Assembly (NCBI GenBank): GCA_037130865.1
Contig: JBAXSG010000004.1
Span: forward strand, 1-58,879
From: Candidatus Tayloriibacteriota bacterium
GTDB taxonomy: Bacteria > Patescibacteriota > Minisyncoccia > Phycocordibacterales > PALSA-1337
Length of the DNA: 58,879 nucleotides
Direction: 5' to 3'
Below the pieces are notes generated by a model. The model saw only the letters and a program-made list of their open reading frames with translations. It had not been told where the DNA came from and made no database searches. The first letter of the stretch is position 1; each line of letters opens with the position of its first letter. Shown here piece by piece: positions 18,992 through 40,206 of the stretch. The translations under genes were made by a program, and so were the position numbers.

Positions 18992-19231
18992 CTTGAACGT
19001 CCTGTATTGATTATTAAGGTCTATTACCAAGGAATGGTATTGGTGATTCCAATAACTAGTAAGAAAAAGAAAGATAAATATCGTGTGCCAATAATAATAA
19101 ACCATACATCATCATTTGCGGTGTTGTCTCAAGCGAAGACGATAAGTACGAAAAGGTTATCAAGAAGATACTTTAAGATTACAAAAGAGGACTTTGATAA
19201 TGTGGTCCGATTGTACAAGGAGCATATATGA
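18992..19231 (+). pseudogene. 5'-truncated MazF/PemK-family endoribonuclease
   Basis: ERPVLIIK...VIPITSK...AVLSQAKTISTKRL. An in-frame TAA lies just upstream of LLERPVL and the N-terminal strand is missing. Confidence 0.7.
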
Positions 19232-19313
19232 GAAAAACCCCACCATGAGGTGGAGTCTTTCGGGGCCCGAAGGCATTATGTTGCAAGTTTAGCAAAAGCC
19301 AGATAGTTGTCAA
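19232..19313 (-). ncRNA. Convergent promoter plus predicted ~50-nt RNA downstream of the mazF remnant
   Basis: Minus strand: TTGACA-16-TAAACT with extended TG, a GCC-TTCG-GGC hairpin, then a GACTCCACC/GGTGGGGTT stem with a U-tract. Confidence 0.55.
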
Positions 19314-19374
19314 ATCTGCTAGCCAGATGCACCGGCTTGCACGCTCTTAAAACACGTGCTATTCTATCCCCACA

Positions 19375-36378: not shown

Positions 36379-37071
36379 ATGTCAGCAGTAAATGAGAAAA
36401 CCAATGTGAAAATAGAACCCTCGTGGAAAACCGCCTTGGCCGGCGAATTTATGAAGCCGTACTTCGTTGAATTGACGGAGTTTGTGAAGGAAGAGTACAA
36501 ACAGACGACGGTTTATCCACCACCTGAGGATATTTTCAGAGCCTTCGATCTTTGTCCATTTGATAATGTGAAGGTCGTAATCCTCGGTCAAGATCCGTAT
36601 CATGGAGTAAATCAGGCAAATGGACTTTGCTTTGCTGTGCACGAAGGAATGAAGCTGCCACCATCACTACAAAATATCTTCAAAGAGATCAAAGCTGATC
36701 TAGGAATAAATCCAATAGCCGTAGCCGACGGCGATCTTTCGCGCTGGGCTAAGCAAGGAGTTTTACTACTAAATGCAACTCTAACAGTGCGCGCTGGTCA
36801 ACCAGGTTCGCATCAGGGTAATGGCTGGGAAGAATTCACTGACACAGTCGTGCGCGAGTTGTCGGAGAAAAAAGAGCATATAGTTTTTATCTTGTGGGGA
36901 AATTATGCGAAAAATAAAGGCGCGGCCATAGATCGCTCCAAACATCTCGTCTTAGAAGCGGCTCACCCGTCGCCATTTTCAGCTTACAACGGATTCTTCG
37001 GTTGCAAACATTTCAGCAAGGCGAATAAGTATCTCAAAGAGAATGGACTAGGTGAGATAGATTGGGGGTAG
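36379..37071 (+). CDS. ung: Uracil-DNA glycosylase (family 1)
   Basis: VVILGQDPYH, PPSL.NI, GVLLLN and AHPSP. Confidence 0.97.
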   Translation: MSAVNEKTNVKIEPSWKTALAGEFMKPYFVELTEFVKEEYKQTTVYPPPEDIFRAFDLCPFDNVKVVILGQDPYHGVNQANGLCFAVHEGMKLPPSLQNIFKEIKADLGINPIAVADGDLSRWAKQGVLLLNATLTVRAGQPGSHQGNGWEEFTDTVVRELSEKKEHIVFILWGNYAKNKGAAIDRSKHLVLEAAHPSPFSAYNGFFGCKHFSKANKYLKENGLGEIDWG

Positions 37072-37078
37072 ATTTTCT

Positions 37079-37168
<90 letters not shown>

Positions 37169-37260
37169 AGGAAGCTACAGTATTTTTTGGGCTGTTTTAC
37201 ATTATCAAAAAAAGTGATATATTGCTACTGGCCTTTATTGGCTACGCCGTGCGCACGCAT

Positions 37261-37332
37261 GGCCCTATCGTCTAACGGTTAGGACAGCGGGTTTTCAATC
37301 CGCTAATCGGGGTTCGATTCCCCGTAGGGCTA
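37261..37332 (+). tRNA. tRNA-Glu(TTC)
   Basis: GGCCCTA/TAGGGCT acceptor, loop TTTTCAA, GGTTCGATTCC. Confidence 0.92.
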
Positions 37333-37338
37333 CTGAAA

Positions 37339-37357
37339 CTTGCCGCTTCCGGCAAAT
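37339..37357 (+). repeat. 19-bp hairpin direct repeat, left border of the NYN islet
   Basis: CTTGCCGCTTCCGGCAAAT vs CTTGCCGCCACCGGCAAAT at 38475-38493 (17/19 identical). Confidence 0.7.
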
Positions 37358-37369
37358 AATCACCTCATA

Positions 37370-37397
37370 GAAAAACCGCTCAGTTGAGCGGTTTTTC
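37370..37397. terminator. Bidirectional intrinsic terminator
   Basis: GAAAAACCGCTCA / TGAGCGGTTTTTC inverted repeat. Confidence 0.8.
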
Positions 37398-37424
37398 TTT
37401 TGTCTAGCATTAGACAATATGCTG

Positions 37425-37607
37425 TCAAGACGTCAACCCCTTGAGGGGAGTCGAACTTTCAAAATCTACCCCCTTGCTTTTTTCAAGTTCTCTTCGTTCA
37501 TAGATGCGAAGTACGAGCACAAGATAGCGCTCAATGTTATCTTCTGCTTCCTGGAGCTGCTCCTCGGTGTAGTCTGGATACAAGTCGCGGATTGTTGGTT
37601 CATCCAT
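37425..37607 (-). CDS. Small helical hypothetical protein
   Basis: MDEPTIRDLYPDYTEEQLQEAEDNIERYLVLVLRIYER, within a tRNA-adjacent islet. Confidence 0.6.
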   Translation of the reverse strand: MDEPTIRDLYPDYTEEQLQEAEDNIERYLVLVLRIYERRELEKSKGVDFESSTPLKGLTS

Positions 37608-37707
37608 AGTAATTAGATGTTGGCTGATAAAATCGACCAATTGGAATCATACGGGTAAGATCCACGCTAGTTTTTTCGTTTTCAAATCTTTGATATAATC
37701 GGCAGCG

Positions 37708-38397
37708 ATGGATATTCAAGATTTCAAAAGAGAATATATTGTCGGTACCGAACTTGGTATTGACGCAACCTTCGGTAAAATTCTGACGGTTATTGATTTT
37801 GGTAATGTGAACTATTGGTTCGATGAAGATAGACAAGATGCTGAAAACAAAGCCCTGCAAGAAGATGAAAAGCTACGCATAAAATTGGATGGTCTGTACG
37901 ATTTCGTATCGCTCTTTTCAGATCATATTCGTTTTTATTATGGTCACGATTCAGAGAAGAAAGAGTCGCTGGCTTTCATTTCTGCGGCTAGGCACGTTTT
38001 CGGTAAGAGGGTTTACACCAAGCCAATGCAAAAGGTGCGTCACCATCTTTCTGCTGATGAAATCGAATCGAACAAACGTGCCACATTTACGGATAACGAG
38101 GGTGTATACATTCACCTCCCAAAATGCAATTTTGATGTTGAGATAAGCGTCGATCTGATCCGTCTCATGGATCGTTATGACACTGTGGCTTTGTTTTCTG
38201 GAGATGCAGATTTCGTCAGCCTCATTCGTTACCTCAAGAAGAATAGTAAGAAGGTTATTTTGTTCAAGGCTGGTTTCATTACAACCGACTTAAAAGAAGT
38301 ATCAGATAAGATTATCAATGCTCAGAACATCAAGAGGCATATCGCCGAGGTGGTAAAGCAAAAACCTGGCGTTAAGCCAGGTCTTGCGAATCGATAA
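37708..38397 (+). CDS. NYN domain (PIN-like) ribonuclease
   Basis: IDFGN, KCNFDVEISVD and LFSGDADF acidic catalytic motifs. Confidence 0.9.
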   Translation: MDIQDFKREYIVGTELGIDATFGKILTVIDFGNVNYWFDEDRQDAENKALQEDEKLRIKLDGLYDFVSLFSDHIRFYYGHDSEKKESLAFISAARHVFGKRVYTKPMQKVRHHLSADEIESNKRATFTDNEGVYIHLPKCNFDVEISVDLIRLMDRYDTVALFSGDADFVSLIRYLKKNSKKVILFKAGFITTDLKEVSDKIINAQNIKRHIAEVVKQKPGVKPGLANR

Positions 38398-38451
38398 CCC
38401 GTATCCACGGGCAGGTAGTTACAATATAGCAGATTGTGGATTGGCGGGCAA
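38355..38451 (-). ncRNA. Convergent promoter plus predicted ~60-nt antisense RNA overlapping the NYN 3' end
   Basis: Minus strand: TTGCCC-17-TATATT with extended TG, a GCCCGT/ACGGGT hairpin, then a GACCTGGC/GCCAGGTT stem with a U-tract. Confidence 0.5.
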
Positions 38452-38474
38452 TAGTTGCTGTAATGGTTCAATAG

Positions 38475-38493
38475 CTTGCCGCCACCGGCAAAT
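38475..38493 (+). repeat. 19-bp hairpin direct repeat, right border of the NYN islet
   Basis: Matches 37339-37357. Confidence 0.7.
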
Positions 38494-38686
38494 TTAGCCC
38501 TCTAGTTTTGCTTAACCACTAAGCTACCATCACCACGATGCTTCAATCCGGCCAGTAGACTCAAATCAGGCAACAAGCCCTGGCTATTTAAGGCTGAAAG
38601 CTTGTCGATAATTTGATTCCAAGTTCGAGGTATGTCATGATGTTGGCTACTTGGGAAGTGATGCTGTCGGGCATCTAGAGGAAAGT

Positions 38687-39259
38687 ATGATAAATAGAAA
38701 GAAAGCCGCTTATATAGCGGTTGCGTGTGTATTGGTGCTTGTGTGTGTGACAGCGTTCTGGTCCGGTAAGATATTTGGCAGTGATCTGAAGTTCGATACT
38801 AGTCGATATTATCCAGTGGATTTTGTTGTGGATGGTGATACATTTAAAGTAAATGTCGGCGCAAGCGACCGTGCGATTGCCGACAAGGAAATTATCACCG
38901 TGCGCGTGCTTGGAATAAATACTCCGGAGATTGTTGATCCACGAAAGCCGGTAGAATGTTATGGTCCGGAGGCTTCAATAGAAGCAAAAGAACTTCTAAA
39001 TGGTCGCAAAGTAAAACTGGTTTTCAATCCAAATAGGGAATTGAAAGATAAATATGGCCGCTACTTGGCTTATGTCTATCGCGATGACGGTTTGTTTTAC
39101 AATGAGGTTATGCTAAAAGGTGGCTATGCCAAAGAATATACTTACGGCACGGCATATTCCATGCAGAAAGAATTTCGCGGCATAGAGGCAGTCGCGCAAA
39201 AAGCAAAAGTGGGCTTATGGAGTGCATGTTCTAAAACGAACACCAAACGCTCGAACTAA
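38687..39259 (+). CDS. Thermonuclease (SNase-like), membrane-anchored
   Basis: VVDGDT, VRVLGINTPE, DKYGRYLAYV and N..ML..GYA. Confidence 0.93.
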   Translation: MINRKKAAYIAVACVLVLVCVTAFWSGKIFGSDLKFDTSRYYPVDFVVDGDTFKVNVGASDRAIADKEIITVRVLGINTPEIVDPRKPVECYGPEASIEAKELLNGRKVKLVFNPNRELKDKYGRYLAYVYRDDGLFYNEVMLKGGYAKEYTYGTAYSMQKEFRGIEAVAQKAKVGLWSACSKTNTKRSN

Positions 39260-40206
39260 GTACGTAAGTAGAGATAAATATCCTCAATAGCTTTGACGGC
39301 GTCGCCGGCGGCGATATTATTCTGATGGTAAAGTCCATCTGTGCAATCTCCAGCAGTCCAGATACCATCTACTGTTGTACGCTGATTTCGTGGATCGGTT
39401 ATGACATGGTTTGACTCGTTTAATTTTACGGTGGCATTTTTTGCAAAATCTGTGTTCGGAATAGCACCAATCTCGACGAATATTCCAGTCACTGGAATCG
39501 TGATGTCTTTTTTGCTTGTCGCGTCTGTGTATGTAAATGAAGTGACGAACTTATCTCCAGCGACTTCCTTTGGTACAGCATTGACGATGACTTTCATCTT
39601 CGGATTTTTACTCACAGCTTCGACTGTTCCTGGATCGGCTTTGAAAGTTGTGCCTCTGTAAAGGAGTGTCACACTCTTACAATACGCGAGTAGTTGCGCA
39701 GCACTTTCGAAGGCGGCATTACCTCCACCAATAACGGCGACATCTTGGTCGGAGTACATCGGTCCATCGCAAGTGGCACAGTAGGTGAGGCCTTTGTGTT
39801 CAAATTCTTTTGCGCCTTTTACGTCGAGTTTGCGTCTGCTACTGCCGCTGGCTATAAGCACGGCATTTGCGTTGTAAGAGTCTTTGTCTGTTCTTATTGA
39901 AAATGAACCGCCGGCGCCACTTGGTCGACCAATCTCTATGCAGGATTCACCATCTTTGAAAGTTAGAATCTCTTCGCCACTCACCTGGTCTTTTGCATAA
40001 GTCTTGGCATGTATTTCTAGGTTTTTCGATAGTTCGACTCCAGAAATAGCTGGAGTACCAACCCAATTCTCGATCTTCTCCGAAACCGAGCTCTGACCGA
40101 TCCAATCTTTTGCAATAACCACCGTGCGTAGGCGCTTACGTGCTGCATAAACAGCTGCAGCTGCTCCAGCTGGTCCGCCACCAATGATAGCTAGGTCGTA
40201 AGTCAT
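39256..40206 (-). CDS. trxB: Thioredoxin-disulfide reductase
   Basis: IIGGGPAG, YCATCDG, VIGGGNAA and AGD. Confidence 0.9.
   Translation of the reverse strand: MTYDLAIIGGGPAGAAAAVYAARKRLRTVVIAKDWIGQSSVSEKIENWVGTPAISGVELSKNLEIHAKTYAKDQVSGEEILTFKDGESCIEIGRPSGAGGSFSIRTDKDSYNANAVLIASGSSRRKLDVKGAKEFEHKGLTYCATCDGPMYSDQDVAVIGGGNAAFESAAQLLAYCKSVTLLYRGTTFKADPGTVEAVSKNPKMKVIVNAVPKEVAGDKFVTSFTYTDATSKKDITIPVTGIFVEIGAIPNTDFAKNATVKLNESNHVITDPRNQRTTVDGIWTAGDCTDGLYHQNNIAAGDAVKAIEDIYLYLRT

Follow-up and report, generated by a model that had tools for sequence, protein, structure and literature searches.

A conserved small RNA gene convergent with an NYN nuclease gene defines a candidate RNA-controlled cassette in Patescibacteria

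Introduction

Among type I toxin-antitoxin (TA) systems, the Bacillus subtilis loci txpA/RatA and bsrG/SR4 stand out for their convergent, 3'-overlapping RNAs. In both, a small antisense RNA gene with a promoter and terminator of its own faces the toxin gene, and the 3' ends of the two overlap; the toxin is a small membrane peptide, and no protein antitoxin takes part. A different pairing of toxin and RNA characterizes the type III TA systems. These systems, ToxIN, CptIN, and TenpIN (PMC3401426, PMC8860590, PMC13682666), combine an endoribonuclease-type toxin with a structured non-coding RNA. The RNA is a tandem repeat array that precedes the toxin gene on its own strand; the toxin processes it, and the two assemble into a cyclic ribonucleoprotein.

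Patescibacteria carry many solitary toxin-like RNases for which no antitoxin is visible. For bacterial proteins of the NYN family (PF01936), a PIN-superfamily survey gives the function as unknown (Matelska 2017, PMC5499597); the characterized NYN enzymes, exemplified by MARF1, are described as RNases.

Here, we analyze a 58,879-nucleotide (nt) stretch of DNA (the window) from a genome assembly of Candidatus Tayloriibacteriota (678 kb, 31 contigs, 94% complete). An initial reading made from the letters alone (the sequence-only reading) had proposed that an intact NYN nuclease gene in the window is met at its 3' end by a small RNA gene on the opposite strand, and that a MazF locus in the same window shares this layout.

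Results

An intact NYN gene with little or no leader

The nuclease gene (Table 1) is indeed intact. Its product matches PF01936 over profile positions 3 to 142 of 145, scoring 54.7 bits where the cut-off is 24.2 (E = 2.2e-14), and its stop codon, TAA, lies at 38395-38397. NYN matches from NCBIfam and PADLOC were partial or sub-threshold only, the "NYN" model of PADLOC-DB 2.0 matching residues 143-216 alone (E = 5.8e-9). Five residues (D30, N33, D143, D166, and D168), among which we take the catalytic ones to be, are invariant across 31 homologues and are all present in the window protein. An AF2 model (pLDDT 90, pTM 0.85; residues 226-229 below 50) has the PIN-like/NYN three-dimensional fold; its best Foldseek match is the LabA-like protein 2qip (E = 1.3e-7, TM 0.72 on the target), and the NYN domain of MARF1 (5yaa/6fdl) is also among the best matches. 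By analogy with the characterized NYN enzymes, the product is most likely an RNase.

The extended -10 box of the gene, TGATATAAT, ends 8 nt upstream of the ATG and there is no Shine-Dalgarno sequence, so the NYN mRNA is probably leaderless or nearly so. By eye, the same -10 box stands close upstream of the ATG in many of 61 homologue starts (13 of the 74 loci described below gave no start), and many homologues likewise lack a Shine-Dalgarno sequence. Pairing of the RNA at the ribosome-binding region of NYN was ruled out, since the gene lacks a leader. The genome's second NYN gene (C1:71141) is a different, core paralogue, with matches in the majority of 60 relatives searched.

Table 1. Positions of the features of the NYN and MazF loci in the window and the basis of each assignment
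Feature	Position	Strand	Basis
NYN-domain nuclease gene, 229 aa, intact	37708-38397	+	Pfam PF01936
Extended -10 box of the NYN gene	37691-37699	+	sequence
Predicted small antisense RNA, ~62 nt	38416 to 38355 (about)	-	R1 model, fold, covariation
RNA promoter, TTGCCC, 17 nt, TG-n-TATATT	38451-38423	-	sequence, scanner, conservation
Hairpin 2, GCCCGU GGAU ACGGGU	38412-38397	-	compensatory changes
Hairpin 1, intrinsic terminator, inside NYN coding sequence	38387-38358	-	double changes
RNA promoters with DnaA-box-like 9-mer	L037-L116; window copy degenerate, ~38433-38441		sequence match
Accessory island, ~1.3 kb, NYN-RNA cassette and 71-aa orphan ORF	37334-38644		relatives' empty site
71-aa orphan ORF, divergent from NYN, in island	37425-37640	-	sequence
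Convergent small RNA behind truncated MazF (19007-19231)	19224-19281	-	R2 51.9 bits, covariation

A predicted antisense RNA converges on the 3' end of NYN

The minus-strand promoter that had been proposed, TTGCCC-17-TATATT with an extended TG, is present. Its -35 box occupies 38451-38446 and its -10 box 38428-38423, the latter preceded by TGC as in an extended -10; a consensus scanner scored it 9/12 with the TG, and the -10 box ends 7 nt before a conserved CCUG. The two proposed hairpins are likewise in the sequence. Hairpin 2 is GCCCGT-GGAT-ACGGGT, and hairpin 1, the terminator, has the core GACCTGGC-TTAAC-GCCAGGTT at 38383-38364, to which GCAA/UUGC adds the outer part of the stem. On the 3' side of hairpin 1 stands the U-rich TTT GC TTT, with five consecutive T including two of the stem. 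Read 5' to 3', the RNA would thus run from A-CCUG through hairpin 2, a linker, and the long terminator hairpin 1 to a U-tract. With its ends placed by the promoter and the U-tract, the predicted transcript covers the last 43 nt of the NYN coding sequence (CDS), close to the RNA of about 60 nt over the last 40 nt or so that the sequence-only reading had envisaged. A 67-nt transcript folds into the shape described, at -26.4 kcal/mol (z = -4.2), and none of 200 shuffles folded as well. The closing pairs of both stems are G-U on the minus strand and become A-C on the plus strand, in agreement with the proposal that the wobble pairs work only on the minus strand.

These elements might be nothing special: the hairpins could serve solely to terminate NYN transcription on the sense strand, and chance could account for the promoter match. 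The window promoter scores only 9/12, and the scanner found 14 such promoters in 4.5 kb against 9.0 +/- 2.8 expected, a count that alone is near chance. It did not report a terminator at hairpin 1, in our own reading because greedy stem extension consumes the T-run. By itself, then, the window with its 9/12 promoter and missed terminator proves little. However, both here and in most relatives the stop codon comes after hairpin 1 in the NYN reading direction, the plus strand has no T-run after hairpin 1, the G-U pairs fit the minus strand only, and the position of the promoter is conserved in relatives though its sequence varies. The sense-terminator account, which the sequence-only reading had itself raised, is contradicted by the covariation, strand, stop positions, and promoter conservation detailed below, and we consider it extremely improbable.

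As had been noted, no small co-oriented ORF that could encode an antitoxin flanks NYN in the window. A small ORF on the RNA strand (38322-38471) was rejected: it would start ahead of the RNA promoter, and the covarying stems of the RNA enclose loops that contain indels.

Beyond the RNA promoter, at a distance of 55 nt, positions 38506-38519 hold a 14-nt inverted copy (93%) of 38350-38363, the RNA 3' tail and the NYN codons for VVKQK. This copy could be what is left of a second cassette in inverted orientation.

The RNA is conserved and its stems covary

In contigs representing one genome per species, 183 stretches encode NYN relatives; we fetched 80 of these loci and built a covariance model, R1, from 33 of them. 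R1 scored 85.5 bits in the window (38348-38418) and gave 74 matches of 28 to 87 bits in 73 sources, namely 72 fetched loci and the window. The matches lie at the 3' end of the NYN gene and on the strand opposite to it; on this comparative evidence, the RNA is a conserved gene, convergent with NYN and overlapping its 3' end. Eight distant NYN loci (34-41% identity) that R1 missed carry divergent versions of the layout, with a convergent promoter, hairpins with a GGAU-type loop, and a terminator; L103 ends at a contig edge.

Covariation in the regions downstream of NYN homologues, proposed earlier as a check, was found. Across the R1 alignment, which was fitted to a model of this strand and so favors pairing, 93.0% of cells are paired, versus 80.6% after column shuffling and at most 51.6% with slid partners, and 16 of the 17 pairs have changed on both sides. 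All five pairs of hairpin 2 show compensatory changes (96.7% of cells paired), and 11 of the 12 pairs of hairpin 1 have changed on both sides (91.4%). An orthologue with 57% protein identity (G036) keeps both hairpins by compensatory changes, and there the ORF runs through hairpin 2. In the same alignment, with the same bias toward the modeled strand, G-U cells outnumber A-C cells by 68 to 12, which identifies the folded strand as the one antisense to NYN.

While the stems covary, the loops are fixed. In 46 loci, the unpaired 5' CCUG and the GG..A of the loop fall outside the coding sequence, and there their conservation is still at least 90%; the RNA is thus under sequence constraints of its own, beyond the needs of antisense pairing. 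In G015, G005, and L228, the RNA persists although the NYN gene is not intact; in the first two, the RNA scores in full and NYN at that locus is deleted or degraded. Such copies could also point to an independent function of the RNA.

Among seven weak R1 matches inspected in relatives (20-30 bits; L122-L128), six were set aside, as they look like ordinary terminators behind housekeeping genes and have no promoter, and the seventh (L126) looks like a degenerate RNA remnant. An RNA-first pattern scan of a metagenome sample gave 80 loci, 76 of which were discarded as chance matches to a 16-base pattern; the four real ones comprise three with a full NYN gene and one with a remnant only.

A conserved promoter position and a DnaA-box-like 9-mer

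Conservation of the RNA promoter among NYN homologues, which had also been suggested as a check, is evident. In the expected interval upstream of CCUG, a promoter of at least 9/12 is found at 61 of 73 loci, versus 5/73 for the reverse complement and 8/73 for a shuffle; for at least 10/12 the figures are 39/73 versus 0 and 1. It is this conservation in relatives that raises the window promoter above chance. For promoters of at least 9/12, the distance from the -10 end to CCUG is mostly 7 nt (the short form, to which the window copy belongs) or 20-26 nt (the long form), and long-form RNAs have an extra 5' hairpin with a GNRA or UUCG loop.

Many of these promoters carry a further element. A perfect DnaA-box 9-mer, TTATCCACA, is present in either orientation in 21 of the 74 RNA promoter regions, just upstream of the -35 box or in the spacer, and 39 regions have it with at most one mismatch. 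Its density is 2.87 per kb in the promoter regions versus 0.032 per kb in the remainder of these loci, and it is also present in the divergent NYN loci. Genome G000 holds 15 perfect boxes versus 7 expected, several of which adjoin a -35 box. As a putative operator, this DnaA-box-like element hints that release of the nuclease could be tied to the state of replication.

The nuclease tail is encoded across the RNA gene

The NYN CDS overlaps the modeled RNA stretch in 72 of the 74 loci, and its stop codon falls in seven different places relative to the RNA gene: in the loop of hairpin 1 (26/74), in its 5' arm (15/74) or 3' arm (3/74), in the linker (12/74, the window included), upstream of the whole core (14/74), in the 3' tail (2/74), or beyond the RNA (2/74, both L070). 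In the alignment of 31 homologues, a tail of the form KQKPGxKPGLADRNPESTGR... is conserved and ends at several places, which points to a nucleotide-level element rather than a protein motif. The strand complementary to the RNA gene encodes the tail of the window protein, KQKPGVKPGLANR, which is predicted to be disordered. Given the seven stop positions and the overlap in 72 of 74 loci, the RNA dictates the protein tail. The C-terminal tail of NYN is thus the reverse complement of the RNA gene, a feature that the sequence-only reading had not contained.

The cassette occupies a tRNA-Glu island

Among 36 genomes of the same genus, NYN orthologues are found in G026 (94% identity) and G036 (57%), with a 31% relative in G015 and a broken remnant in G005, a patchy distribution. 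In the window, the accessory island that holds the cassette is bounded on one side by tRNA-Glu (37261-37333) and on the other by a degenerate repeat of the 3' end of this tRNA (38623-38650); the duplicated GTTCGA...GGCTAC-TGGGAAG, made up of the tRNA-Glu 3' end and its flank, covers 38623-38658. G010 and G027 have an empty site, in which tRNA-Glu is followed by about 45 nt and then the start of an SNase gene, with no insert. By comparison with these relatives, the NYN-RNA module is a mobile cassette in a tRNA-Glu island, a further point absent from the sequence-only reading. The 71-aa orphan ORF of the island was rejected as a partner, as it has no Pfam, PADLOC, or NCBIfam match and is not conserved beside NYN elsewhere.

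Across relatives, NYN alone recurs among the ORFs within 3.5 kb of the RNA (73 of 73 sources), and the neighbors in these sources include no conserved protein partner or antitoxin, which bears out the earlier observation beyond the window. The genomic contexts are otherwise very diverse; hsdM lies just upstream in seven loci, hsdS in five, and a serine recombinase gene in five (named by reading the sequences). Loci with 56-58% GC on long contigs labeled as other phyla suggest that the cassette has spread beyond CPR, and one close relative was found among three matches on viral contigs. A search for longer homologues returned only an NYN N-terminal fragment fused to PilC and no intein-embedded form of the clade, the latter being weak evidence.

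Long flanking direct duplications of local sequence accompany four of 59 loci (101 nt in L054, 84 nt in L039, 54 nt in L090, and 31 nt in L081; null maximum score 14). A 19-nt direct repeat in the window (37339/38475) scored 13, within the null, and was not accepted as the footprint of an insertion.

One account of these data is that NYN is a DNA-cutting, homing-type nuclease and that the RNA serves mobility or limits host damage. Such an enzyme would suit the diverse contexts, the duplications at four loci, the island with its empty site in relatives, the hsdM, hsdS, or recombinase genes that adjoin in a few loci, and the PilC fusion. However, 55 of the 59 loci have no duplication above the null, the window repeat lies within it, no intein-embedded form turned up, and the characterized NYN enzymes, as described for MARF1, cut RNA. 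We regard this account as quite improbable.

Several loci add observations of their own. The L054 repeat starts with ATG and, by eye, resembles the first ~30 codons of the neighbor gene, with a lipoprotein-type signal peptide. At L070 (GC 0.57, on a contig labeled Xanthobacteraceae), a transposase gene or IS element splits NYN from its RNA. A MazF-like gene there has a second NYN-type RNA copy upstream of it, and the vicinity also holds a serine recombinase gene. L302 (G021) and L291 (G003) contain, upstream of the SNase gene, inserts of about 190-200 nt whose flanks are exact duplicates of the 3' end of tRNA-Glu or tRNA-Ser and which have the internal motifs GAAAAGGTTAAG ... CGAAACCTGTACCG in common. 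The shared motifs and duplicated tRNA ends point to a small non-coding element that targets tRNA ends.

A second RNA family faces MazF genes

The sequence-only reading had held that two unrelated RNase folds in the window share one layout, and this is both correct and general. The truncated MazF gene of the window is met on its 3' side by a convergent unit of promoter, UUCG hairpin, and terminator. Of 201 genomes of the order, 55 have MazF relatives, many of them more than one copy, and all 31 loci considered (30 fetched, L133-L162, and the window) have the convergent RNA unit. Its layout is promoter, GGC-UUCG-GCC hairpin, CCGAG, and terminator (MazF and RNA together at 19007-19314 in the window and at C4:9327-9700 in G000). 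In the corresponding covariance model, R2, 30 copies have 90.3% of cells paired versus 74.6% in shuffles, and 12 of 14 pairs show double changes. No mazE-like ORF is conserved upstream of MazF in any of 30 loci. The MazF ORF sometimes reads into its RNA, as NYN does into the NYN-RNA. We take the RNA behind the window MazF to be a second RNA family, analogous to the NYN-RNA.

The two families resemble each other in part. A hairpin-UCCGAGAU-terminator design is common to deep NYN-RNA variants and MazF RNAs (alignments compared by eye). Perfect copies of TTATCCACA occur in three of 30 MazF-RNA promoters, fewer than in the NYN-RNA promoters.

An RNA-first search for the MazF-type RNA gave two matches with no ORF of at least 60 aa nearby. 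In L318 (1501-1966; G157), a strong copy (49 bits) is convergent to a gene for a 133-aa aspartyl-protease-like protein (PF13650, E = 6e-6), and there is no MazF there. This type of RNA may therefore serve several partner genes.

Discussion

From an RNA gene of defined structure, strand, and promoter that is strictly linked to NYN in a mobile cassette, we infer transcription of the RNA, repression of NYN, and toxicity of NYN. We lean, with moderate conviction, toward a selfish nuclease cassette in which the RNA serves as cis-antisense repressor or antitoxin. The cassette would consist of two genes and be self-contained, pairing an NYN-fold nuclease with a convergent, structured RNA of 60-90 nt. 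A near-consensus RNA promoter would fire into the 3' end of the nuclease gene, with its terminator within the CDS, and abundant antisense RNA would hold the nuclease silent. Pairing of the RNA with the 3' end of the NYN mRNA would create a duplex cleavable by RNase III, which the genome encodes; colliding transcription could provide a second route to silencing. When RNA synthesis drops, the nuclease would be made. Such a scheme would be that of a type I TA system with 3' overlap and an enzyme as the toxin, and its role could be that of an addiction or defense module or of a selfish mobile nuclease gene in need of a throttle. The promoter directed into the 3' end, the terminator in the CDS, the lack of a protein partner, and the RNase III gene all fit cis-antisense repression.

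The conserved unpaired bases count against cis-antisense repression, as pure antisense pairing has no need for them. Together with the RNAs that outlive NYN, they leave room for a protein-binding (type III-like) or independent role. The folded RNA might instead bind NYN as an inhibitor, decoy, guide, or activator, in which case the overlap of the two genes would be a matter of linkage only. CCUG and the loop GG..A, conserved where non-coding, would then be features of the kind expected, as would loops held fixed while stems covary and the extra 5' hairpin of the long form with its GNRA or UUCG loop. Set against this are the near-universal overlap of CDS and RNA (72/74), the lack of tandem repeats and of the same-strand upstream layout of ToxIN, and two observations that speak against recognition by a single fold, namely the hairpin-UCCGAGAU-terminator design seen by eye across NYN and MazF RNAs and the close RNA copy behind the aspartyl-protease-like gene. 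We judge a type III-like or cofactor role to be rather unlikely.

A broader reading would unite the two families as branches of one undescribed class of mobile modules, widespread in Patescibacteria and spilled into other phyla. Each module would consist of an RNA-cutting enzyme under a dedicated, structured, convergent small RNA; the RNA would pair with the enzyme's message, a common partner would read the conserved unpaired bases, and the promoter would be wired to DnaA, such that a disturbance of host replication or transcription, for example by phage, would release the nuclease. We count this reading as unlikely; if true, it would amount to a new toxin-antitoxin type.

The proposal of a general and possibly undescribed class of toxin or anti-phage modules is upheld in part. 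In Rfam 15, tRNAs are the only matches at gathering score in the window, and the RNA element has none, its best sub-threshold match in a search up to E = 10 reaching 21.3 bits versus 55 (E = 0.28). Our full-text literature searches turned up no paper in which a convergent RNA accompanies NYN or MazF. What stands is that the RNA lacks an Rfam family and a description in the literature searched and that the layout is general across NYN and MazF; a toxin or anti-phage role is putative.

A conserved antisense RNA partner would explain how solitary toxin-like RNase genes are tolerated, and RNA-controlled toxin-antitoxin biology would gain a branch in which the toxin is an enzyme. For annotation, the two candidate RNA families concern NYN relatives in at least 183 species and MazF relatives in 55 of 201 genomes of the order. 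At about 0.9 kb, the NYN-RNA and MazF-RNA cassettes are also simple, portable test objects.

How does this locus compare with known systems? As in txpA/RatA and bsrG/SR4, NYN is accompanied by a convergent, 3'-overlapping RNA with its own promoter and terminator, without a protein antitoxin, and the cis-antisense RNA gene overlaps the putative toxin mRNA, as judged by sequence. Unlike the type I toxins, the protein is a 229-aa soluble NYN nuclease (or MazF) and not a small hydrophobic peptide. The NYN-RNA further differs from the RNAs of these two loci in that its terminator lies inside the CDS and writes the protein tail, in its conserved unpaired bases, and in the DnaA-box-like 9-mer of 21 of its 74 promoters. 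With type III systems, the cassette shares the pairing of a putative endoribonuclease-type toxin with a structured non-coding RNA and the lack of a protein antitoxin, but here the RNA is single, downstream, and convergent, and the NYN fold is not the ToxN fold; a direct-repeat search of 36900-39300 gave short two-copy matches only and no type III repeat array.

On the protein side, the nuclease has the domain, fold, and conserved acidic residues of the LabA-like NYN proteins (PF01936/COG1432; 2qip, MARF1), from which its clade is set apart by a helix at the N-terminus, an insertion that follows the first strand, the RNA-encoded tail, and an obligatory antisense RNA partner. The MazF loci share the MazF/PemK toxin domain with type II MazEF, but the upstream mazE-like ORF is absent in 30 of 30 and a convergent UUCG-hairpin RNA is found instead. 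Taken together, the NYN-RNA and the MazF-RNA would represent two new RNA families and a variant within the known class of RNA-controlled toxin modules.
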